DNA of 63,863 nucleotides, filler included, from Bipalium vagum (Eukaryota), in assembly GCA_037834085.1 (NCBI GenBank). It is 3 parts of 3 records of this genome, joined end to end, with 100 filler letters (N's around TTAATTAATTAA, not from the genome) between each part and the next. Parts side by side here need not be neighbours in the genome. Positions count along the whole stretch, not along the records: positions 48,315 to 63,863 come from JBBMKC010160400.1; 2 more parts are not named here. One strand, written 5' to 3'. Each line of letters begins with the position of its first letter. Positions within the stretch are counted from its first letter, which is position 1. The notes beneath the pieces are model-generated. The model did no database searches. It worked only from the letters and a program-made list of their open reading frames with translations, and was not told the DNA's origin. The translations under genes and the position numbers were made by a program. Of the stretch, positions 21,398 to 58,001 are shown piece after piece.

Positions 21398-21497
21398 NNN
21401 NNNNNNNNNNNNNNNNNNNNNNNNNNNNNNNNNNNNNNNNNTTAATTAATTAANNNNNNNNNNNNNNNNNNNNNNNNNNNNNNNNNNNNNNNNNNNN
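21398..21497. other. Artificial contig-joining linker (44 N + TTAATTAATTAA + 44 N)
   Basis: Exactly 100 bp; the core has stops in all six frames; identical to the linker at 48215-48314. Confidence 0.97.
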
Positions 21498-22979: not shown

Positions 22980-23360
22980 CGCGGCCAACATTCATAAATA
23001 GGGAAGGCTTTGTGTTTTAATATGAAAACGCAAGACCATATGTGTCTTAATGAAGGATCTTAATTGTGAGGTTTTATTGCATCCTCTATATAGTCATGAT
23101 ATTGCACCGTAAGACTATCATTTATTTCTTTTAATGCAAAACTTTCTTGATGGTGTAAAATTGATCTCAAAGGAGGACACCGAAAACCACTTATCTCAGT
23201 TTTTCAGTGAAAAGTCAGAGAAAAATTTCAGCGAGAGAATTCTAGCTTTATCAAAGAAATGGCAGGACATTATCGATCATGGTGGTTCTAAAATTGACTT
23301 AGAATTCTTAAGGTTTTCATATTGCTAAAATCTGTGGAAATGTTTTGGACGACCCAAGGT
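22980..23360 (+). mobile_element. Mariner C-terminal remnant, mellifera-like
   Basis: ENARPY...EVLLHPLYSHDIAP*DYHLFLLMQNFLDGVKLISKEDTENHLSQFFSEK...KWQDIIDHGG. Confidence 0.88.
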
Positions 23361-23949
23361 TTTAGACAACAACCCAACCGGATTGTTTATCTTTTAATTA
23401 ATCAATTAAAAATAATCTTTATTTTATTTAATAAAATTTGTTTAAGTTCCGGATAATAAATTATTTATTTTTCTTTCTAAAACTTTCTAAATTATCGTTA
23501 CCTAAAACATAAAAATATCAACACCATTAATTTATTCTTTGAAAACTGCGGAGTTAAAATTTTTTAGGATTAATATTATTTTTCATTCAATATAATTTTA
23601 TTTATTAACATTTTTTTGTGTTAATTCAAGGTACATTTAGATTCACAAAGAGGAAGACCCAATTTCAATCTAATTAATCCCGTCAACATACGTTATCAAA
23701 AAAGAAAAAAATTATAATTTTATTTTTAAAAAAATATAATATAAATAAATTTCTTCTAATGATATTATTAAACGTATTTTTTGTCTTGCATTGCACATTT
23801 ATTGTTTATATGAGTATTTTATTTCTGTAAAGTTAACTGTTTCGCATTTCGGTTTTGCTTGGTATTAAAAATATTATTTATATTTTTCCCGTTACAAGTA
23901 AAGTTTATGGTATTTCTTATGGTATTTCTTACTATTTTCGTAAAACAAA

Positions 23950-24320
23950 TTATGTCAATTGGGAATATGGACTGACAAATTCAATGGGGAGTTCCAAATC
24001 GTTTCGCATTCGTTTATGTCATCCTTTGCATTTGAAATCCGAAGAGTCTTTTAAGAATGAAATGAATTTCTGGGCTGACTTTGTCGAAAGTGTAACCAAG
24101 CAGGGATGCCTTGTTAATTTCCTGGAGTAATACTCAAAACAGTCCAAAATCCGGGCTTTTTTTCAATTAAAAGCGTACTTAATTAGTAAAATACTTGATG
24201 GAGCAACTATTCCAATATCCATAGATTAAGGTCTGTCAGCTTCGGGTATAATATTCGTAGGCTTACGTACTGCAGCCAACAAAAAAATTGTTCGGGGTTA
24301 TAGGATGCTCCAGGTCTTAA
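23950..24320 (-). mobile_element. Possible pogo/Tigger DDE remnant
   Basis: MDIGIVA (compare QPMDxGII) and FDKVSPEI..KRLFG (compare AWDxVSPExI). Confidence 0.35.
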
Positions 24321-25468
24321 CCTATGAGAGAGAAAGGTGACAGTTGAAGTGATTTATTAAAATTCCCAGATCGTAACGCCAAAATAGGAATAGTGAAATG
24401 AAATTTAAATTTATTAAAATGAAAAATGCGATCAAATAATTGATCCTAGTACAAAAATTGCTTGAGGGAAATTAAATCTATTTTCCTTTGTTATTACTTT
24501 AAAATTGACCAATTTTCATTGAGAGAGACAATTCTTCTCAGTCCCCTGACGATTTGCCTTCATCTTTAATTAAAACGCAGAAATCATCATATTCTGCAAT
24601 TTCTCCCGAATTCGCTGAGAGAACGTATTCAGAAAATGTCGGTTGATTTAGCTATATTTTTAATATTAATAAATATTTTAATTTTAAAGGGAGGCAGAAC
24701 AATTTCACGGAACAATTCTTCATAGGCATTTCTTCATTAAAATCATAGTCCAATTGAGATATTAATTATATATTATCAAACCTGGAATATTTTTAATGTA
24801 TAATTAACCTCTTTCGAGTAAACAATTATATTTATTTTTAATTTTAAAAAATATTTATAATTAAATATTATTTTATTTTAACAATCTGAGACGTTATTGG
24901 TACTGTAAATTTCTAAATTAACGCTGAGAAGAAAAAATGGTAATTAAAACAAAAGTAATCAAGATAAAATTAATTTTGATAATTAATTATTGCTTTATGT
25001 GAGAACGAGAATCCATTATTGTTATTATTAGTATTACTTTGATAGCATAAAGATTAGATGGCGCTTATATTTCTCTGAGAACAATGGACTGGTTCAAAGG
25101 TCCACCTATTTATGAGGCTGAATGTATAAGTACTTAAATGGGTCGATTGGTTTCAAAAAATAAAGTTTTTTCTTTTCAGAGGCAATTACATTGTATAAAT
25201 TAATCTTCAGAAAATAATATAAAATTTGAGCTTACCTTTAAAACGAAATAACCCTTAGGCCTCGCCAATAATTGACCCGGCAATCAATGTGTTCAGTTCA
25301 AAGCTATTTTTGTACAGATCTCATGTTGAATTAATACAAATAGTTTTTGTTTAGATATTTGCCGATCTAGTTATATTTTACGTATTTTAATTTAAGTTTT
25401 AATTTTAATCTAATTTAGTTTATTTTTTCATTATTTATAATATAAGTACTTATTAGACAAGGGGTATC

Positions 25469-26041
25469 TATTAGGTTTATGAATTGAAAGTGAGCCATTT
25501 TTTACAATATTGTTTCTTTATTTAATAACTAATATAAATATTAAGTAGACATACAATGAAAAAGAAAATTTATTCAAAATATTTTTCATCGTTAATAAAT
25601 TTCTCCATTTTTCTGGAAGCTGATGAATTCCTCAATAAAAGAATCGGTATTTTTGCTGGCTGTCCATTCAGTGATTCTTTTTTCAGCTTCCTCGAAGGAT
25701 TGGAAGCGCTTCTCGGAAAGTGAGTTGACCAAAACAGATAGTAGTCAGAAGAGTCGCAGTCTGGTTAATAAGCTACATTAGGGCCACACTTCCCATCGAA
25801 GCAACTCTAATGTTTCCTCGATTCATTTGTTGACATCTGGCCGGGCGCTATCATGCAGCAAAATTATTTTATGCTGCCTTTTCTCATATTCTGTTCTTTT
25901 TCGCTCAATGCCTAGTTCGGACGTATTAATAGTTCTCTGTAGAACCCCCATGTACCATTTCACCTTGCTTAAACAAATGAATAAAATTTTTTTATTACAG
26001 GTATTTTAAAAAGGGTCTACTTTCAATGCATATACTTAATA
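25469..26041 (-). mobile_element. Mos1/mauritiana-like mariner deletion derivative (573 bp) with TIRs
   Basis: TIRs tattaggtttatgaattgaaagtgagcc and gggtctactttcaatgcatatacttaata. Inside, KRQHKIILLHDSARP...EETLELLRWEV and SLSEKRFQSFEE. Confidence 0.88.
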
Positions 26042-26479
26042 GTATTACACAAGAGAAATTAGACTCGGATTAAATAAGAGATTTTTTAGTTTTAGAAGTT
26101 TAGGTAAGTTTATTAGTGAAACAAATTATCGTTAGAGAGGAGGTATGATGTAGATACCTTTAAAGACAGTATCTACATGAAAAGAATGATGACGGTAGGA
26201 AAATCTATATAAGCCTTAAATCAATAAACCAAGAATGGAAAATAATTAATCCCAGAAGTTTTCATGTAGAGAACATAACATAATTTTGTATTTTATTCAC
26301 TAATAAAAAACTCTATTAATTATAAAATAAAAACGAAGTTTACAAAATGAATTTTTAAAAGTCAGCACTTAATCTTTAAATAGTAATGAATTTTTAATTA
26401 TTAATTAATATTATGGTCGTTTTTTAAAAGAAAATGTTAACCAAACAACAAATGCGAACTGTTTACTTTTAACAATTAT

Positions 26480-26720
26480 ATCTAACAAATAATGCAGTGG
26501 AAGCAACTTGAAATGTAAATAGAGCTTTCTATAACGACAGAGTCAACAGTGTGTTGGTGGTTCGCAAGATTTCATCAAGGTAATTGTGATGTTAATGTCA
26601 AGAATGGTAATGAACTCAACACTGCAGTGGATCATAATGAATTGAAGGCTTTGATTGAGAAAATCCATGGATTATAGTACAAATTTTCAAAACTTAATAT
26701 TTCCAATTCACGAATTTCTA
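26480..26720 (+). mobile_element. Mariner N-terminal fragment
   Basis: TTESTVCWWFARFHQGNCDVN...AVDHNELKALIE. Confidence 0.72.
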
Positions 26721-27699
26721 ATGTCTACTTTGGATTAGAAAGGGAAAACAAATAAAAACATCTTTTATTAAGGCATTTTCAAAGCTAGTACATAATGATA
26801 TGGTTCCCGAAGAAATTCAAAATACTAAAAATTATTTATTTTCGTACCAAGTAAGTGAATAAGATTTCTTTCATAAGCGTTCCTTTATTCAGAAATTACA
26901 AATATTATAAAACATTTTTGTTACACAAATAAATTATCGCCAAATCAATCCAGATATTAAATAATCGATTTGAGATTAATATTTATTTGAATAAAATTTG
27001 CATTTGAATTTGGTAGTTGACAGCAATGCAAAACGTATTCCACAATCGAATACTTTTAATGAATGGCGCTTAATTTGGTTATTTCATTTTTATTTTCGTT
27101 CGTAAAGGCACTTATTAGCTTCAAAACAACTTAATATCTTGAGTTAAAAAGATTTATCTAAATTTTTATTATTTTTACAAATAATAAAAGTAAAATATAT
27201 CAGAAAATATTTTAGTTATTTCTTATTATTAAGTATCTCATGGTTCCGAATCACTGATTATATATCTTTTTGAGTATTTCTAACTTTCTTTTCAAGAAAT
27301 GAGAATCAATTTGAAATTAATAAAAATTAAATTTCCCATTTCGTCAAACGTATTTAAACATTTTCCAATTAATGAATTATAAATTCCAACAGTCTACCTA
27401 TTCTCCTCAAACAATTGGATGGTAATTCAATGAAAGAGATACAACAAATTATTGAGTATTTATACTGTAAAGCGTCCAATTAAAATTCAACAGATTATTG
27501 GATCATTAATTAAAACAATTTTTGATTAATATATCTGATTATGAAAAATATATAGTCTTATTATATTTGTAAAATTTTTAGACTTACTGTTCAAGGATCA
27601 ATTGAGCTGATATTCTGGTATTGGTTTTTATGGCCTAAAATATTGTTAAAAATAATTTTATACTTCATTTCCCTTTTTAAATATTTATATCATGGTAAA

Positions 27700-28512
27700 T
27701 CATAAGTGAAGGTCACACTAATCTGTGGAATGATCCACGCCCCGGTTGACCTAGAACCGTATAATCCAAGACTGTACTCTAAGCAGTTGACAATGATCCA
27801 TCAACCAACAGTCGTATTTTGTCACATGAGTTAAGTATTCCTCGAAAAAATCATAGTCCGTCACCTATATTAACTTTGGAAAGTTAGCCGAAGCTGTCGA
27901 GAAGTCCCTCATATGAATCAATCAGAACATCATATATGAGAAACTAATTGAAAATCCATGGGACGAAAGTTTCTTTCGTAGAATGAAAATTGTATTTATT
28001 TCCACAATGCTGACAATAGAAACGAAGGTTATTCCCAGTTCGAATTTGTTCAAAACAAAGAGGTCATAAATGCGGATTTATACTGTGGTCAGCGTGAACA
28101 AATGTATCCGTTTTTTATAAAAATTATCCTTCAATTATATCCAAAACAATTCAAAACCACGTGCGGTCAGAGAGATGATGGTACAAATATGAAAACTGAA
28201 TGGAATCGACCACATCTAGCTTACAGCCCAGATCTTGTGCCATCTGACTATAACCTTTTGCTGTCAATGGTACATTTTCTGCAAGGACATACCTTAAATA
28301 ATCTAGACAATGTCAAAAATGGATGCTAGAGGTTTTTCAATTTCAAAATCAACGCTTGGTACAGACATAGAATAGAACAACTTGCTAATAGATGGTTTCA
28401 GACAATTGAATGAAACGAAATTTATTTTGAAACTTGATTTTCATTTTGTTTTCCTTAAATATGTCTCAGTTTTTGCTATAAAAACTCACAAAGTTTTTGT
28501 TTACCCAAATAT
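27700..28512 (+). mobile_element. Decayed mariner (CREVPH-type linker)
   Basis: GHTNLWNDPR, DNDPSTNSRILSHEL, SRSCREVPH, HLAYSPDLVPSDYNLLLSMVHFLQG...EQLANRWFQTIE. Confidence 0.87.
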
Positions 28513-29899
28513 TTACAAATTGTTAAATGGGAATCAATTATTTTATCAGTTAACGTATTTTTGAAGAATGGAACTCATTGGTTGATTAAAAATAATAATT
28601 GTAGTGTATTTTAGTAAAAACTAGCGAAGAATTGTTTTGTTGTAAAAATTGTTTTGTTTTAATTAATTAATTATTAGGTCATTTTCAATCTAGATATGAA
28701 TAAAATATAATAAAAATTATCTGAGTAGCTATTGGAGATTAGAAAAGAGATTTACTTTAGAAAAGTCTTCGGAACAATATTTAGGAAAATTTAGGCCTTA
28801 AAAGATGTTTTACATAATTAAAGAATTTAATACAATGTGTCTGTCCAACTTTACTAATTGTCCAGTTCAGAATTTTTTTAAACCATTGAAACAAAATAAT
28901 CTGTCTATAATGCGTAGCCATTTTTCCGAGAAAACAATTATCCAATGAATTTTAATCTAAAATTATCTTTTGATCTGATTTCTAAAATGGTAAAAAGAAC
29001 CTTTAGAAACGTGAGCAGTGAGATTAATAATTCTTTTTCATTTTTTTTTGTAAATTAAATCTATATTTCAAGAAATAAATTCTGAACTCGAAATATCGAG
29101 TTGATATACGATTCTTAGAATCTGTGAATTCTAAGAGGCTCTGCAATTTTCTCTGCAACCTCACTGCCTTTTCTTCTTAGGAATGAGAGATATCAGATTT
29201 TGACAATGTTAAATGATACTTAAAGCCTCGCATCAGTCAATTGTATAGGAATGAAATGACAGATTTGAGAATTCTGTCTGCAACATGATTTAGGAATGAA
29301 ATTTCGGATAATTATGCCTCGAAATTAAATTTTATTCAAGTATTACTAATAAGATAAACAAAATAATGAAAGATAAATAAATAAAACAGAAATAAATATC
29401 GCTCATAAATTCAAATTCGATGAAGAAGGAATCAGAAACGCTTGTAGAAGTTATTAATTTTACGACTTTGTTTTTATTATTAAGCAGTTTTGATAATAAT
29501 AATTAAAGGCAAAGAGGTCAAAGACAAACGATATATCCCCCACCTCCTTCAAATGAACAAGAGAAACGGATATCATTATGATTTATAGAAATTCAGGAAC
29601 GATTATTCATTGGAGAATATTCTATATCTATATAATATTTGATTATTAAAATAATAATATTACGTTAGTCAAATTACGTTTTAATTAAATAAATAAATAA
29701 AAATAAAATAATTAACTTAAAGTAAAACAATTAAAGAAAAATTTAAAATGATTTTCAAAATCCACTGGTTGAGTAAAACAATTATTTGTTGGACATTAAC
29801 TTACTGAGATTTAATTCTCTACAAAAATCATTGAATGTTTCTTAAAGATCATTTAAATTCACCAATTTTTGTTTTTTCATAATCTGATTAATTTTCACT

Positions 29900-30310
29900 G
29901 TCCCCGTTAAATGATTGTAAATCTGGACTAAAATGTATTTCTGGACGATCAGCTATATCTGGTAAATCTTATTTAGGAATTTGACAGCTTCCACAGTCAA
30001 AGTAGTTGGCTTTATGTTTGAAAGAGGGTTTCTGAATGGCACAGATATAACATGTTCCATATTGGTGACTTGAGCTGGTAGTCCAAATTGCAAGAAAACG
30101 AAATGGAAACGTCTTTGTACTATCTTTCTTATAGCGATATAGATTCCTATGACATAACTGCGTAAAGAAATAATGGCATGAATTCCTTGTCGACATCATA
30201 ACAACTCATCTTGAAATAAGTCCAATAGATTTCTCGAAATACCTTACTGAATTTTTGCCTCGACCCATAAATAAATTTCTCACATATAAATCTGTGTGGG
30301 TGAATTTCAC
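29900..30310 (-). mobile_element. Chapaev-like (CMC superfamily) transposase N-terminal remnant
   Basis: HPHRFICEKF...YWTYF...DVDKEFMP...CHRNL, PFRFLAIW...H...CYIC, DLPDIADRP..H; resembles the Chapaev Cys/His-rich N-terminus. Confidence 0.5.
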
Positions 30311-31529
30311 TCCACCTCTGTCAATTATCAAAAAAAAATTTAAATTACGCTTGTTTTTAATTGAAATAAGTCGATAAAAAAATGGATTTGTGTAATCTTA
30401 TTTAAAAATTTAATTTTACTTCAAATATCAATAACTTTACAACTGCGCGACAGAATTCAAAAAAAGTTTGGATCTGTAAATAACTTAACATAATTGATTA
30501 AATACTGTTAAAATTTTACTTGTGTAAATTTCTTGTCATACCAGTGTCATTAATTAAGTTACACAAATTTATTATCAATTAAATTATTGGAAATAAAAGT
30601 TTAGGTTATAATATAAATAATGTGAATATAAAAATGAATATAATTTTCTTGTATCATAGATATTCCAACCTCTTAAATTTTATTGATTTTATAACAATTA
30701 GAACATCATTATTTTCTTTCTTAAACATGCTTGTATAAAAATTTCTGTGATTTCCTGAATAAAATATAATTTTGCAAAATTACATAATCGATTATTCTTT
30801 ATATATACTTCATTTAAATCTCTGTAATAAATTCTATTGTTTTCGTCTTAAGTCACAGTTACCGTTGAAACAAATAAATTAGTTGAGGAAATAAGAATAT
30901 AATTTTTATATATTTAAACAAACGTATTATATTATTATATATAACAGCATTAAAAATTTTCTCCAATCCGATATTTATTCTCCACCATTAGCGTAAATTA
31001 ATAATTTACTAATTATATTATTTTATTTTATTAAACATTATTTTATAAATATTAATGGAGTTTATAATTTATATTTATAAAAAAAAATTCCCTAAGGGGA
31101 AAATGGATATCCTATAAAGGTTTTAGGAAGAACATATACTGAAGCTTAAAAAATTATATATCCGTAATTTATTTTATAATAAATAATAATTAGTTAATAT
31201 TTTATTTAAGAATACATTAAAGGATCTGAGTGTCTGATATAAGTAAGAGTCCACCGTACGATCGTGATAAAACTCAAAAGTCTGATGGATGTAAGTGAAC
31301 TAGTAAAATGAATTTTGAAAAGTTTTTTAAAGTTATAAGTTAAGCATGTCTATATTATTTATACCGAGATCTGTCGTTAATATTTTATATTAGCCACAAG
31401 AAGCTTTAGACATTCAGACTAAGGTTTTCATATTTTGCGTTTCTCTAATAATAATAATATATCTCAATTTTTTTTTAATAATGATACAACTTTATAAATC
31501 ATTTAACGTCTATTGCATATTTTCCATCT

Positions 31530-46980: not shown

Positions 46981-48214
46981 AAATTCAAATATGTTCAACA
47001 ATTTCCTAGAAAATTCTAGAGATAACGTGTAATTCTAAATTAAAACGCTTACTTTTACAGTAATATGAAAAACCAAAACTAGCGCTTCACCTTGGTAAAC
47101 TAACATAAATACTATCATATCTATTGATTGATTGACAAATCTTTGAAATAATAAAACCAAAACTCATTATCTCAAGTGAGATAACCTGATACTTTATACT
47201 TCACGTGACCTATCAGGATCAATATGGGAAATTCAAAACTTCCTGTCTTGTATAGGTCGGATCAATTCAAAAATGGAACCTCATGATTATCACCAAAATT
47301 ATCATGATTATAACCAAATCCATTTGAAATCCAGCCTTCACATAACATCTTAAAATAGTTACTACTGTCAGCTCTATTAAATCATCAATCAACCAAAGAA
47401 AAATAAAAAAACTGGTTTTTGTCAAATGCATTCTGAAATTGCCTAATCTGATATAGTATCCCGTGCAACAAACGTTTATGATATTTTTTCACAATTTTGA
47501 TGCCTTCTTGATCTACCAGTTGCAATTTGTAATTTTTAAATTGAGAGAATAATTTTATTATTAAATATACCATAAGCTTGGTGATTAGGCATCAAACGAC
47601 GAAGTCATTAAAGTCGTGAAATAATTTAAGTGTTGAAAAAAGCCGACCATCCGGATACCATTTACAATGCCAGATAAAATTTAAACTTTACTGACAGTTT
47701 TTTATTCGGAATACTGAGTGACCAGTTTGTGAAGGACCACTGCCGATGGAAATATGGATTTTTATTCTCAGACCAGTATAAACTGTCTGGAAAAGATAAG
47801 TGTCCACAAGCAGACGTTAGACTGTGCTCATAATAATATTGGTTTAATTTTATAATTTCGCTTTAATCTCAGACAACTGCTAAAACCATGAAGAAACGAT
47901 AATCAATAAAGAAAAAATATTTCTAATCAATTATTAATAGAATTTAACATTAAATAATATTTTATTTCACTTCCGAAATCTTTATTAAAATGCAATAGAG
48001 AGAAAAACTATTCAATAATTTCTAGGCTCAAGTCAGAAAATGAATATTTTTATTGATTATTGTTTATATTTTTTTGTCAAACTGAAATATAAAAAGAACA
48101 TTTTACTTATTTTATTATTTTGGTGCACTTCAATTTTATTTATATAAAGAACAAAATCAATAATTCAATAAGAAATCTGTACTATTGCCATTGGACTTAA
48201 ACATAAAAAACTAT

Positions 48215-48314
48215 NNNNNNNNNNNNNNNNNNNNNNNNNNNNNNNNNNNNNNNNNNNNTTAATTAATTAANNNNNNNNNNNNNNNNNNNNNNNNNNNNNN
48301 NNNNNNNNNNNNNN
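48215..48314. other. Artificial contig-joining linker (44 N + TTAATTAATTAA + 44 N)
   Basis: Identical 100-bp structure to 21398-21497. Confidence 0.97.
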
Positions 48315-48339
48315 AATAATTAATTGATAATTATCAATT

Positions 48340-48600
48340 TAAACCCTATTGTGGTTTCTACCATATACTTTACAAGGGTTGTCAAGGATGTCCTTGGCTA
48401 ACCCAACACTTATATTCATTTGTTTTTGACTTGACGATTTTTAGCGAGTTGATCTTTGATAATCAGATATTGGAATGATTTTGATATGATATTCAGACAT
48501 TTGAACGATTTTCGTTTTGATCGGATTCTGCATTTGTGACGAGTGCATGAGTTTTTGTTGAAAGATTAAATAGTTTTATTGTTTTTGTTTTTTATTCAAT
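48340..48600 (+). mobile_element. LINE reverse-transcriptase remnant
   Basis: KGCQGCPWLTQHLYSFVFD (compare GVRQGCPLSPxLF) and a downstream DSAFV. Confidence 0.45.
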
Positions 48601-48880
48601 TTAGCTTACATTTGTGTAACTGTAAAAGTGCAACGAACGCATTAGAAAATTAGATGTAGGAATTTGAAAGAAATCAGATAGCGACTATACCGAAAAGAAG
48701 TATCGAAAATAGTAAAAATAGTATTGTTATTACATTTTTTAATAGATTTGATTGCAAATCTTTAATTAACAGTTATTATTAAATATTAATAATAAATATT
48801 TTTAAAAATGTAATTTTAAAATTTTGATTCACGACTGCATACAAGTGATCTGATTTTGTATAACCAATTAATAATAATTT

Positions 48881-48973: not shown

Positions 48974-49926
48974 ATTATTCTTTTATTTTTTAGTATTTTT
49001 TGTTCTTCAAGTCAAGTAGGGCGAACAACTGAATTTTTACCTGAGGGCCCTTCAGAGTAGTTACCAAATGGTTATCTATCTTAACATTATCTTCTTCTCT
49101 GGTTCTATCTTAACCTCAACCTGTTAAGAAACATTAACATCAGTCAAATTTATTTAAAAATATATTTTATAAAATTCAATTGCTATCTTAGTTAATAATT
49201 CGATTTATTTTGTTATATTATTCGATTCAGTATTGGAAAAAAGATTTGTCAATTAAATTTGTCACTCTTAAAAATTTTAACTATTCCATATAATACGCGC
49301 AAATAAATCCTTCTGAAACAGATTAATTGTTAAGGTATCCAAACTCATCTGATATCTTCACACATTATTAACCCAACTTTGAGCAAGCTTAACGCATAAA
49401 CATAAGTTTAGAGTTTTATTTAAAAAATGACAATGTTTTGACTAATAAGATAACTTAAAAGCAACACCTAAAATTCATTTATACATGTTGGCACTAATCT
49501 TTCCAACCTATATTTCGAATAACTGAATACTTCAATCAACCTATTGTTCTTCGATTTTAAACCAGTGATTACTGAAATATAATGGAATGAAAATAAAACT
49601 TTGGATTCAAACCAATTTGATGCAAATGGTTGAGATTAGTAATATATTGAAAACGCAATGACTAGCAACCATAAGATAATTTTTCTCCCCAGATCTTTTG
49701 AATTAGATCAACATTTCACTATTACACATTAAATTTCTCAAAAATCAAACAAATTCAGTAATAAAATGATTTTTTTATAATAATTTATCAATAATAAATT
49801 TCAATTACTGTTAAAAAATTGATTCTTCTTCAAAATAAAGACAAAAATCAATTTATCAACCGAGTGACTTTAAAGTCAAAATTAACCAAAATAATCAGTT
49901 TCCTTTATAGAACAAAATAGAATAAT

Positions 49927-50135
49927 TGTGCAAGAACTCTCAAAAATTAACTTTTTAAAAAATCCTCAAAATTAATCTATTTTATTTAGTAGCTTTTAAG
50001 TCTGACAGCTCTGAGAGCTTCTTATATAGGATATCACAGAGCTTCTCCATTTGCTAGTTTCGACAGGCGACTAATTTTCTAAGGAGAAAAGTATATTACG
50101 GAATTTCTAAGAAAATCCAAAATTCGGGCGTTACA
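49927..50135 (-). mobile_element. Possible solo LTR (~209 bp) in an intron of the TPI-like gene
   Basis: The minus strand starts TGTAACGCCC, ends ...GCACA, and contains TATATAA followed by AATAAA; no TSD visible. Confidence 0.4.
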
Positions 50136-50230
50136 TGAAAGCTTACGTGTACCTGAGAAATCTCGTAAAAATATTAATTTTGTTAATTTAAATTTCATAA
50201 CATAATTCCATTTTTAAATTAACAATTTAC

Positions 50231-50439
50231 CGAAAATAGTTTTAAGATATTCAGCATACCCATCTGCTGGATTTTCGGCATTGAAACATTTTGGTATATA
50301 TTGAATGCATATAATTACTTCAAGACCTTTTTTTAATGAATAAATTATCTTTTCTGATAGCATTTCCGGTGAATCATGGGAAGCATCTTGTATTGAATTT
50401 ATTATGATCCAGTCACAATCACAGACCAGCGTATCAATG
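50231..50439 (-). CDS. Internal exon of a divergent triosephosphate-isomerase (TIM-barrel) homolog lacking the catalytic His motif
   Basis: (S)IDTLVCDCDWIIINSIQDASHDSPEMLSEKIIYSLKKGLEVIICIQYIPKCFNAENPADGYAEYLKTIF aligns by eye to TPI [73 protein letters not shown]. Acceptor ttag|C (phase 2) and donor G|gtaaat (phase 1) fall at intron positions known from human TPI1. Confidence 0.78.
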
Positions 50440-51295
50440 CTAATCAATTGAAAATCTCAATAATGATAAGCAATTTTTCAATATTTTTATTTAGTTCTTT
50501 ATTATAAATAATTTTATCAAACACCCTTCAAGCTTACTTATCCAAATCTAGTTTTCTGGATTCGAAAAATTGACAGAAAGAATTTTTGATAGTTCTGTGT
50601 TCATTGAAGATCTTATCTTTGATGAGTAGAATAAAATATCGAAAAAAATGATATTCGTTTGGCGATATTTTAATATTTTAAAATAGTTCAAAATTCAAAA
50701 ATAGCAGTTCAAAATAGTTTTAATCAGCCTATAATATTAAAATAATTTACTAAATGTTACCTTTTGAAATGAGTAGCTAGCATAGATTTTTTTGAAAAAT
50801 AATCATTACATAAGATTGGATAAAAATATATAATTAAATTTAAAGAATACGCATATTTTTAAAACAAATAATGGTAAGAAAAATGCACTCAAATTGCTCT
50901 CTAAAAAAATGACCCAATTAGGCTACCTCCCAGAAAGAATGTTTATAATGCAAATCTTTCACTTATTCATCAGCTAAAAACAGGCGTTCTATATCTTCTA
51001 TTTTTGGTTATTTTTCTTAACATCCAAAAATTTATGGTCACCTTTTAAAAATAAAATCAATACCTATCACTTTTATTAAAAATTAATTGTTGCAGTTTAA
51101 TTTCATGAATTTAACAATAAATATTAATATATTCCTGTTAAAAAAAAAATTCATATTTGGTTATTGGTTCCTTAGTAGAACAACCGAGTCACAGGTAAAT
51201 TTATGTCTAATTTTTTTCTATCTGAGTAAAAAATTAAAAACATTTTCATTTCGTTTTCTATTATTGAAGATAATATAAGTTCAGAAGTGCATTCT

Positions 51296-51390
51296 CTAAC
51301 TGTAATTCAATCACGAACTATAAATTGTTAATAAATTAAAAGTACTAATACTCAGTGAACGTAAAACAGATATTAGAATTAAATAATTCC
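51296..51390 (+). repeat. Dispersed repeat copy B
   Basis: Direct-orientation diverged copy of 48881-48973. Confidence 0.85.
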
Positions 51391-51649
51391 CCTGTTTTCT
51401 TAAGTTTCTCAGTATCTTTTTTTGTTAATGTATATTCAAGTTCAGAACTTTGGTTATTCTGGATAACAATTTTAATGTTTTTAAAAATATTTATTTAAAC
51501 TATAATATGGCAACTATGTCGGCAACTATTGATCTTTGTCGACTCAGAAAATGGGTGGGGACGTAAATTAGTAAGAATTTTTCATTTTTAATTTCTTTGA
51601 ATAGATTCATTATTGTTTAATTACTGGTCATTTCTCTGTATTATTATTT

Positions 51650-52545
51650 TTATCAATTCAGAAGTAGTTAACGTGGGAGAGTACTGACAGGAGCTTAGTG
51701 ACATACTTCAGGAAAGTTAAATGTGCTGAGATTCTACAGGTCTTAACAAACAAAATTATGAAAGATCATTGGCGTGCGACACATTTTCTAAATTTGTCTT
51801 CAAAAGGCAGATTTTAACGAGAAATAACTTTAAATAACGATTCTGTCTAAACCTTTATCATTACATGTAAAGAAGCATGGATATTGTTGTCATCCTCAAC
51901 TTTGGATAGTCAATAAAATTGCATTTCAAAAATTTAGTTATCATTTATTGAAATCTGTGCAGAATTATCTCAACTGGTAAAGATCGGCTTTATAGAGAAA
52001 TATGAAGAATATTTTTATACAAGTTTTCATCAAAAATTCTCCAAACTTTTCAATGATGACACTTAAAGATGAAAAAAGGTTATCGATGTAAAAGGTACGT
52101 CGATGTGATTTGAATACATATTTTTCTTCTAGGTTTTCTTTTTAATTTCAATGTTGTTCTAAAATACGACAAAACTTCCTTCTCCATCCAATAAATATAA
52201 AATTGTGACAATTAATGAAATATGTTCACCTATTTTCATCTTCACTTCTCGTTGAATAATTACTACAGCCAGACGCTGAAATTTTAATTTTTCTCGGCAA
52301 TTTTTGTCGGAAATGAGGAACGAAGTATTTTGAAGGATCAATAACTACGTCTGCACAATAATTGTCACTTGGTTAAATTAAAAAAATATATATATAGAAA
52401 ACCTGTATGCACATAATCGAGAGGACCTGTGTTGAGAAGATTCAGAAATTTTGTGATATCACTAGGAGAAGATGACTGTGGAAAACGACCAGCAACAAGA
52501 AACTTCGTGTTTTCCACCATTGTGCGCGATATCGTGTTATAATTA
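51650..52545 (-). mobile_element. BEL/Pao LTR-retrotransposon pol remnant in an intron of the TPI-like gene
   Basis: In the expected order: NGGKHEVSCCW (compare GRYEVxLPW), VVF, TFYIDN (compare FYVDD/N), APVSTLPR (compare APxxxTIPRLEL). Confidence 0.45.
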
Positions 52546-53211
52546 ACTGTTAATAATAAGAAAAATACTTCAAATAAACAACGTTTTTAAAAAATTATCA
52601 TCATTAATAACTTGATGAAAATTTAGAAATGATTGAAATTACTATAATACTTAATGTAACGATATTAGTTATTATTATAATTATTTTACAACATTATTTT
52701 ACAAATTACTGTGAATTTGATTTTGATAAACAATATTGACTACTGTTATTAAATAGAGAATAAATTAACACTAAATTCTTTGTAAAAATATTAATAATAA
52801 CAAGATAAATACTGTCGAAGCAAATACCAAAGAAAAACTTAATTAATTTTCTTTACAATTCTAATTTGATTTTGATAGCTTGGATTCTTTAATTTTTAGT
52901 AACTTGAAATCAATGTAATCACAATTCTTTGATTAAATTAATTAATTAATTATTAATTAAAAATTAAGATTTATTATTTAATACATTAATCATTATTATT
53001 TTTTGCTTATAATTTAGTTATTTATAATTAATTTAGTTTTAATAAAATTATTTTTATCTTCTTTTAGTTTGAATTCGGAAAAATTATTCAATAATTAATA
53101 TTTTTATTTAATAACTTTATGCGATGCTTTTTGAATTACTGAATCAATCCAAACACTTCACTGTCTTAATATGTAGGTTAATCTGCTTACCTTTTCTAAT
53201 TTAAATTTCAC

Positions 53212-53396
53212 CAAATGCCTTTTGTTTTTCTAAACTGGATTTTTTGCTTAAATTGGTCATCGGCAGGACGAAATATTTCATAATTCTTCAAATTCCTAGC
53301 CTTGTAGAAACAAATATCACAGGGACTAATTAAAATTTTATTTCGTTCATTAAAATCAGTCAGTTTTAAATATTCATCAAATTCGACAGGTTTCAC
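53212..53396 (-). CDS. Probable upstream exon of the TPI-like gene (5' boundary unresolved)
   Basis: FDEYLKLTDFNERNKILISPCDICFYKARNL resembles TPI [32 protein letters not shown]. A phase-2 donor (ATT TG|gtgaaa) joins in frame to the exon at 50439. Confidence 0.5.
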
Positions 53397-54418
53397 TTTT
53401 CACAGCAATAATTTTTCAAATGCACTAATGATATAAGCGAATAATTAATTTAAACGTATTTATATTGTTGTTAATCATTAATATTATTATTAAACACGAA
53501 TCAGTCCTAATTTATTTTTCCCTTAAATAAAATTATTATTAAATTACCATTGTTAATTGAAAGTATTTTTTGTCCAAAATTAATAAATGAAAAATCTCGG
53601 AAACATCTGACGAAAAAACTATTTAAACACAATTTACATGATTTTATTTAATTTACATTTACTTTCATTAATTTTTCCCACAAGATAAATCTTTCTAGAA
53701 AACGTTAGATTTTCTATTTTAAAAAAATTAATAAATAAATAAAATTCGTGTGATATACATATATATAATTTATTATTGGAGAAAAATGTGACCTGACTCG
53801 AATAATAAAACAATAATCTCCAAGTAGGATCCAGCAAAGATTGTAAACTCTGTCAGTAATAAAATTCCTTTTATCCCCATTTAGTTTGAATTACACATTG
53901 TTAGGAAGATAAATTGAAATGAATTTTAACTTAATTACTTAAATGCATCCCCCATTAGGATGAAGTGTAAATTTGATTTAAATTTAATTTTAAATTTGTT
54001 GAAATCGACCTCATTTAATTTTTCAATTTGCAATCTTTCCCCAACCCAAACATCAGAGTGGGGACTGTTGTCACTAGCTCGTTTTTATCAAGTTGTACGA
54101 GCTTGGTGAGCTTGTGAAGAGGAAATAGGAAGACCAATTATTGCGAATGAATGAATCCATAATTTGCGCTTCATCCCTTAACTAATATTAAAATTCCTAA
54201 CACTCTAATTAAAGTGTTTAATCGATAGCTCGTTCCTAATTGTATAATTGATCTTTGTAAAATTAATTGTTGCTATTTATTATAATGACTTCAATTTTAT
54301 TAATTGAATAATTTACTTTTGTTGTTTTCGTTGCTGTTGTTGTTGATGTTGATGTTGTTGATGATGATGTTGAATGTTTTCAATCATAATTGTCTTTCTA
54401 AGCCTCCGTGATTTATTT

Positions 54419-57158: not shown

Positions 57159-58001
57159 GTTATAATCTTTGCAACGATCATTGTTTCTTTATAAATTATT
57201 TTTTTTATTTTAATAACATTATTTTTTTGAAATGAAATAAAATTTTTAATTATTTTCAATGATTTTACATATCAATATTATGTGCGACATTTTATAAAAT
57301 ATTTGAAATATTGTTTTTATTGAATTAATAAATTCATTCACTTTTCAATATATCTTAGAGTTGAACTATTAATATTTACTATTTTTATACAAAAATGTTT
57401 TTATTCACTGAGAAGATGTTGAACAAATTTCAAAGGTTTCTTTAGTTTAAAACATTTACAAATCTTATTGTAAAATGACAAAGATAAAAATGGTAAGACT
57501 GATAATAAATATTATATATATAATATAATACTGATGAATAATTTTGATAATAACGATGAACGGACGATATGTGAATCGTTATAAATAAAAGAGCGGCAAC
57601 CGGAGATAAATATTCAAACTGGAGAAAGTAAAAACTAATGGATAGTCAATGTTTTCTCTGATTAAGTAATTTTTTTAAAAAAATTTTAAATAATAATTTC
57701 TACCATTCAGAATTTTACATATTTAATTTTAAAAATTAGTCCGTCGTTTAGGTAATTAAGGTGTGTTGTTTTAAATATGAATGACTGATGGTGAACTGAT
57801 AATAGTTCGAAGCATGTTTAATAATATTAAATGTTTGGAAAAAATTTGTTCAAAATTATTGAAATGCGTCTATTTAAAAAATAATATAATATATTTAATT
57901 TTTATTACATATTGAATAATTTTTAATCTTCAAGCTGTCATAATCAAAATATTGGCTTTGTTTATATGAACTGCAAAAAATATTGCAATTTTATATATAT
58001 T

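Follow-up and report, generated by a model that had tools for sequence, protein, structure and literature searches.

The locus considered here lies on the minus strand of a 63,863-nt stretch of Bipalium vagum DNA (the window, with a GC content of ~0.25), and it raises the question of whether a copy of triosephosphate isomerase (TPI), which is among the most conserved enzymes, may have lost its catalysis and still have been kept by selection. The first-pass annotation had read positions 53396 to 50231 as a candidate catalytically dead TPI paralog, or pseudo-TIM. The catalytic loss in this reading stands and is extended, since Asn11 and Lys13 are gone besides His95 and a relative (P0006) likewise has no His95, while the 5' end of the proposed gene model is wrong.

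The reading was built on a 209-nt stop-free exon (exon 3 below), which is indeed present at 50439-50231, with an AG acceptor in phase 2 and a GT donor in phase 1. The introns that flank it were said to coincide with TPI intron sites, and they do so, at column 79 (phase 2) and column 152 (phase 1); the altered His95 motif and the altered Cys126-Gly128 motif are also there. In contrast, the gap-free TPI alignment reported for the last 32 residues could not be reproduced: the scored match to canonical TPIs goes no further than about Cys126-Ile127, and over the ~22 residues that remain, colinearity with canonical TPIs is one of length only, with no confident alignment.

When exon 3 was searched against the PDB at E ≤ 10, all 60 listed of the 63 matches were TPIs, the best (E 0.0017, by a small margin over the next) being 6ooi, the Schistosoma mansoni TPI. 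The sole NCBIfam match was TIGR00419 tim (E 0.076), whose 12.8 bits are far under the curated cut-off of 130.6 bits, the queries being individual exons and not the joined protein. No match to exon 3 was found in Pfam, and all the matches in the Atlas search were below 0.9 and were chiefly glycoside hydrolase barrels. An AlphaFold2 model made from exon 3 and P0006 only predicts a strand-helix-strand-helix arrangement (pLDDT 65, pTM 0.48). TPIs head the Foldseek list for this model, from E 0.55 upward, with nothing at E ≤ 0.001.

The first-pass annotation had joined exon 3 directly to an upstream frame by a junction 53212>50439. This junction has to be given up, because two better exons, 52520-52403 and 52350-52230, lie between its ends. 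The corrected structure is as follows.

Exon 1, 52403-52520, minus strand: 118 nt, with the ATG at 52520 and a phase-1 GT donor; strand 1 and helix 1.
Intron 1, 52351-52402, minus strand: 52 nt, GT-AG, GC 0.21.
Exon 2, 52230-52350, minus strand: 121 nt, phase 1 to phase 2; strands 2 and 3 and a rewritten loop 3.
Intron 2, 50440-52229, minus strand: 1790 nt, GT-AG.
Exon 3, 50231-50439, minus strand: 209 nt, phase 2 to phase 1; strand 4, helix 4, strand 5 and helix 5.

Two TPI profiles were used. The animal-type profile was made from 37 distinct full-length TPIs obtained from 120 metagenome loci, with partial or intron-split loci left out, and the bacterial profile from 72 TPIs (71 from 122 fetched loci, and that of E. 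coli). Residue numbers are profile columns, which match human numbering for Asn11, Lys13, His95, and Glu97. Each of the three exons is the top ungapped TPI-profile match within the window; exon 1 scores 16.8 bits against 4.7 for the next best of 8,404 positions, and exon 2 scores 22.4 bits against 8.4 for the next best of 12,689. The single PDB match of exon 2 is also a TPI (E 1.3). Joined, the exons form a 149-codon open frame (448 nt) that aligns end to end with columns 3-127 of the animal-type profile at 50.1 bits, where the best of 2000 shuffles reaches 5.7. With the bacterial profile the score is 13.3 bits (best shuffle 3.2). Therefore, the parent was an animal-type TPI. Homology to TPI thus measured covers the N-terminal 60% (columns 3-127) only. 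An unguided spliced alignment finds the same three exons at 54.4 bits, versus 20.8 or less in 13 other tiles; the bacterial profile is too weak to join exons 1 and 2 in the spliced search.

The introns sit at canonical, ancestral TPI positions, namely column 38 (phase 1), column 79 (phase 2), and approximately column 152 (phase 1), which are occupied 21, 1, and 1 times, respectively, among the 24 intron-bearing canonical animal-type loci of the 120; the later introns are undersampled in these loci because the loci are short. With introns present at ancestral positions, the locus is not a processed (retro) pseudogene. No stop, frameshift, or broken splice site is seen in exons 1 to 3, and all five splice sites are intact. 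The first 149 codons, in short, are of TPI ancestry and have the exon-intron structure given above.

The frame to which exon 3 had been joined is the following.

Uncertain upstream open frame, 53212-53399, minus strand: 62 codons, GC 0.30; its GT donor, in phase 2, would fit exon 3.

Its portion 53399-53214 is marginally TPI-like against its own shuffles, ranking 18 of 1001 by itself and 12 of 1001 after being joined to exon 3. No match to the frame was found in Pfam or NCBIfam, nor any usable one in the Atlas. As the main model, the junction 53212>50439 yields 23.3 bits, in-phase join included, against 50.1 for exons 1 to 3. The frame is probably not part of the coding gene; candidate readings are an exon of the UTR, a faint alternative 5' exon, and the remnant of a second copy.

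The neighbourhood of the gene is mixed. On the same strand, 3.5 kb upstream, lies an apparently intronless 350-codon open frame (57031-55982) with a homeodomain (Pfam E 5e-19), presumably of the NK2 class. The minus strand at 4300-3485 has an exon of 272 codons from a channel of the ENaC/degenerin family (Pfam ASC, E 4e-24), and broken copies of mariner/Tc1 transposases (HTH_48 matches) are found at 45067-44215 and 21449-20854 on the minus strand, among other places. Two very high-copy repeats may be recognized by their summed depth in a DNA run, X1: 23,000-31,000 at 57364-58000 and 6,700 at 48320-48642, compared with ~24 for single-copy contigs. Neither a tRNA nor a canonical TPI was found within the window.

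The residues on which catalysis depends are replaced. The catalytic triad of TPI consists of Lys13, His95, and Glu165, and Lys13 is essential even in comparison with arginine, Lys13Arg leaving ~0.2% of the activity (PMC3971408, available text). Two of these three residues are absent from the intact first three exons. The changes are Asn11 to Arg, Lys13 to Pro, and His95 to Ser, in columns that are invariant in 37 of 37 canonical TPIs. Exon 1 has in addition Met14 to Gln, and exon 3 has Gly94 to Asn, a two-residue deletion, and Gly128 to Gln; owing to the deletion the state of Glu97 is ambiguous (a gap or Gln here, Glu in P0006). Strand 4 ends without a histidine both in the exon 3 product and in P0006. 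Overall identity to the 37 animal-type TPIs is 14-27%, and 10 of 41 near-invariant TPI columns are kept.

The dimer interface and the barrel core show opposite patterns. The interface of TPI is described as loop 3 with Met14, Thr75, Gly76, Met82, and Glu104 in the available part of PMC4816394, from which seven interface columns (14, 65, 75, 76, 82, 98, and 104) were taken. None of the seven is kept; in loop 3, encoded by exon 2, Thr75 has become Asp, Gly76 Glu, and Asn65 Gly. In contrast, five of seven barrel-core columns, taken from the available text of PMC6180082, hold a residue that is among the two commonest in TPI, the other two columns being Phe to Leu and an Asp. The catalytic loss being in part common to a distant relative, the protein is likely non-enzymatic, and these column counts suggest a barrel without catalysis for which pairing with TPI is improbable.

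That relative came from a search of 1.84 billion protein representatives with exon 3, which returned three proteins at E ≤ 0.001. Two of them, P0005 and P0007, were set aside as repeat artefacts: each is a long protein in which the match is scattered over short stretches, 11 in P0005 and 6 in P0007. The third, P0006, is the 78-residue product of a single 645-bp ENA contig and covers exon 3 only. It is identical to exon 3 at 41% of positions across all 69 residues, gap-free, and itself matches TPIs when used as the query. Its similarity starts and stops at the exon 3 boundaries, as judged from the protein, and it has in common with exon 3 the changes at Gly94 (Asn), His95 (Ser), and Gly128 (Gln) and the two-residue deletion. 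Since identity between exon 3 and canonical TPIs is only 17-30%, exon 3 and P0006 belong together as a derived group, in which P0006 may be not a strict ortholog but a sister paralog. No second relative was found among the 1.84 billion representatives or in word-indexed searches. A full-length ortholog was found neither among sets of 16 and 259 candidates, which is weak evidence, nor among 447 pattern matches in JGI metagenomes.

The divergence between exon 3 and P0006 was compared with a neutral simulation of AT-biased substitution, without indels, down to 41% identity. Only 542 of 20,000 runs left exon 3 free of stops, and thus selection kept the dead form; mismatches as conservative as those observed occurred in 27 of 3,000 runs. 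The long-term selection that had been proposed for the fold is in this way borne out for exon 3 against P0006. By simulation rather than by dN/dS, the comparison of the two sequences demonstrates purifying selection on exon 3 between B. vagum and one relative, over the time that separates the two and not as selection today. The combination of lost catalytic residues with purifying selection on exon 3 is that of a pseudoenzyme, as seen with one relative and by simulation.

The remaining third of the protein (columns 153-248) is where the locus is less clear, because no stretch of the window stands out for these columns, in profile and spliced searches, as exons 1 to 3 do for theirs. Two features bear on it.

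Gap, read as a scaffold gap, 48215-48314: N's in two runs of 44 each, lying 1.9 kb downstream of exon 3.
Uncertain strand-6-like stretch, 50026-50078, minus strand: an acceptor at 50078, rich in pyrimidines and correctly phased, followed by an in-frame TAG.

The 3' exons may be absent from the assembly at the gap, which is preceded on the exon 3 side by multi-copy sequence; no informative repeat was found between exon 3 and the gap. The other gap of the window (21398-21497) has the identical format of 44 N, 12 bases, and 44 N. Beyond 48215-48314, a 3' exon picked by eye at 47879-47585 was rejected, as it has no PDB or TPI-family match, scores at background level, and, once spliced, reaches a stop three codons in. 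A 66-codon open frame at 47862-47665 (minus strand, GC ~0.34), without a family or PDB match, may belong to another gene. An exon-like stretch of 80 nt at 49120-49041 was discarded for its two in-frame stops in a multi-copy region, and a circular permutation, with the 3' half upstream, found no match on either strand.

The strand-6-like stretch lies 170 nt after exon 3. Its part 50061-50026 ranks 1 of 50,314 positions for columns 153-164, a range picked after the match had been seen, and 31 of 43,266 for columns 157-170. The model from acceptor 50078, with the first stop read as X, ranks 14 of 2,475 acceptors, three of those above it falling in the gene's own exons. The TAG is the third codon, a second stop follows 23 codons later, nine codons after Tyr164, and the position of Glu165 is occupied by Ile. 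Just inside intron 3, at 50135-49986 on the minus strand, TGTAAC (50135), TATA (50028), and AATAAA (49986) follow in an order that we take to be LTR-like; no end or target-site duplication was found for this stretch. The strand-6-like stretch may be a chance match inside such sequence. X1 agrees with 49159-54318 at 0 differences, so that the TAG is not a simple assembly typo, although this run may come from the source sample itself. No long piece among the X1 contigs covers 47046-48210, which proves nothing. In a second run, X2, no ortholog exons were found in the small share covered; a 213-nt contig of this run, which is filed under another organism, equals 50014-50226 with 0 differences at depth 5, as either contamination or a shared repeat. 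The 3' half thus lies beyond the assembled sequence, or it is truncated or broken, and it may be decayed and frameshifted.

With the gap 1.9 kb downstream and the stop in frame, both truncation and recent death of the gene in this species are possible. It is unlikely that a pseudo-TIM functional in the lineage has died recently here, by nonsense in exon 4 with exons 1 to 3 not yet decayed. The strand-6-like stretch is in phase with a strong acceptor behind a TAG also present in X1, as this explanation needs, but it carries two stops in ~85 nt, overlaps the LTR-like motifs, and ranks only 14th, while the 448 nt of exons 1 to 3 and the five splice sites are intact. That the protein is a C-terminally truncated partial barrel of ~154-173 residues is quite unlikely. 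Read-through into intron 3 would give 154 residues, and a short terminal exon from an in-phase acceptor at 50152, 78 nt from the donor, would give 173, with an AATAAA ~95 nt past the stop; P0006 too ends two residues past the same glycine. However, exon 3 and P0006 both end at the ancestral phase-1 intron site, the exon from 50152 adds no TPI score (49.6 versus 50.1 bits, rank 1818 of 2,475), and a barrel of five or six strands is unlikely to be stable alone.

The remaining alternatives concern what the barrel does. It is rather improbable that the barrel, with polar residues newly placed at the mouth of its pocket, has turned into another enzyme or into a sensor of a specific ligand. Exon 3 and P0006 do agree in Asn94, Ser95, and Gln128, where strands 4 and 5 end, and column 42 is now Asp; but with identity at 41%, three residues held in common next to conserved strands count for little as evidence, the phosphate-binding loops 6-8 are outside the recovered sequence, and Pro at 13 abolishes the cationic group. 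A regulatory subunit forming a heterodimer with canonical TPI, like a prozyme, is highly improbable. Dead paralogs do act in this manner in other enzyme families (PMC6221367), and in flies, phenotypes of TPI deficiency can be complemented by an inactive TPI (PMC9890696), in the available text of each; here, however, all seven interface columns are altered, and changes of the Thr75Arg and Gly76Glu type, with which Thr75 to Asp and Gly76 to Glu may be compared, are among the dimer-interface mutants described in the accessible part of PMC4816394, where a fly Gly74Glu TPI still heterodimerised in co-immunoprecipitation. That the locus is the sole, active TPI of the organism has a negligible chance, with Lys13, His95, and Asn11 all replaced and Lys13Arg by itself already leaving so little activity (PMC3971408).

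The explanation preferred here, to which we assign a probability of roughly 0.55, is that an intron-retaining copy of an animal TPI encodes a likely full-length, non-enzymatic barrel with a binding or scaffold role and not a partner subunit. TPI would have been duplicated at the DNA level beside a working TPI; the copy would then have lost catalysis (Asn11, Lys13, His95) and the loop-3 dimer interface, with most of the barrel core retained as a putative binding or scaffold module. Its 3' exons would be lost in or beyond the gap at 48215-48314. Expression today is presumed, and the product would be a candidate monomeric or newly interfaced barrel. A cytosolic location is suggested by an N-terminus without an obvious hydrophobic leader by eye, and the barrel may there take over one of the proposed non-catalytic protein-binding jobs of TPI, for which cytoskeletal or cofilin contacts have been put forward (PMC9890696, available text). 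For the further view that this is an old, dedicated non-catalytic TPI paralog of a flatworm-like lineage, in which catalysis and interface are gone and the barrel is redeployed for binding, the odds are about even.

Compared with known systems, the gene resembles animal cytosolic TPI (EC 5.3.1.1) in its colinearity over columns 3-127, its introns at 38, 79, and 152, and its core residues, and differs from it in the loss of Asn11, Lys13, His95, the dimer interface, and most near-invariant columns. Six canonical loci have an intron at column 107, which is absent here. In having a TPI fold without predicted isomerase activity, it is like the engineered Lys13Met 'delta-cat' TPI, which has been used to argue for a non-catalytic role (PMC4816394, PMC9890696, as far as their available text goes); unlike that point mutant with an unchanged interface, it is a natural, deeply diverged paralog with a rewritten one. 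Trichomonas vaginalis also has duplicate TPI genes, with a proposed moonlighting role, but both of its copies are fully functional enzymes (PMC9890696, same text). The trypanosome prozyme, a dead AdoMetDC paralog, is likewise a dead metabolic-enzyme paralog kept by selection, but it is an activating heterodimer partner (PMC6221367, available portion), whereas the TPI interface is gone here. Ilborin is another invertebrate protein described with a TIM barrel; its barrel, however, is of the aldolase type with an EF-hand, is not of the TPI family, and is reported absent from planarians (PMC8864356, available portion). No natural catalytically dead TPI paralog was found in full-text searches of openly accessible papers, although such a gene could stand without comment in a transcriptome table.

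Judged from its sequence, the locus is a real, conserved pseudo-TPI, whose full length and expression in this species are putative. Pseudoenzymes are well known as a class, and the novelty lies in the family and not in the principle; if the reading is true, the textbook 'perfect enzyme' would here have its first natural pseudoenzyme. A role of TPI beyond that of an isomerase is debated, because inactive point mutants can stabilise active partners (PMC9890696, available text). A natural paralog without catalysis or dimer interface, yet selected, would separate these two roles and would, if true, provide a clean genetic handle on the debated non-catalytic function of TPI. If an ortholog exists in a laboratory planarian, RNAi could be used to knock it down while leaving glycolysis untouched.
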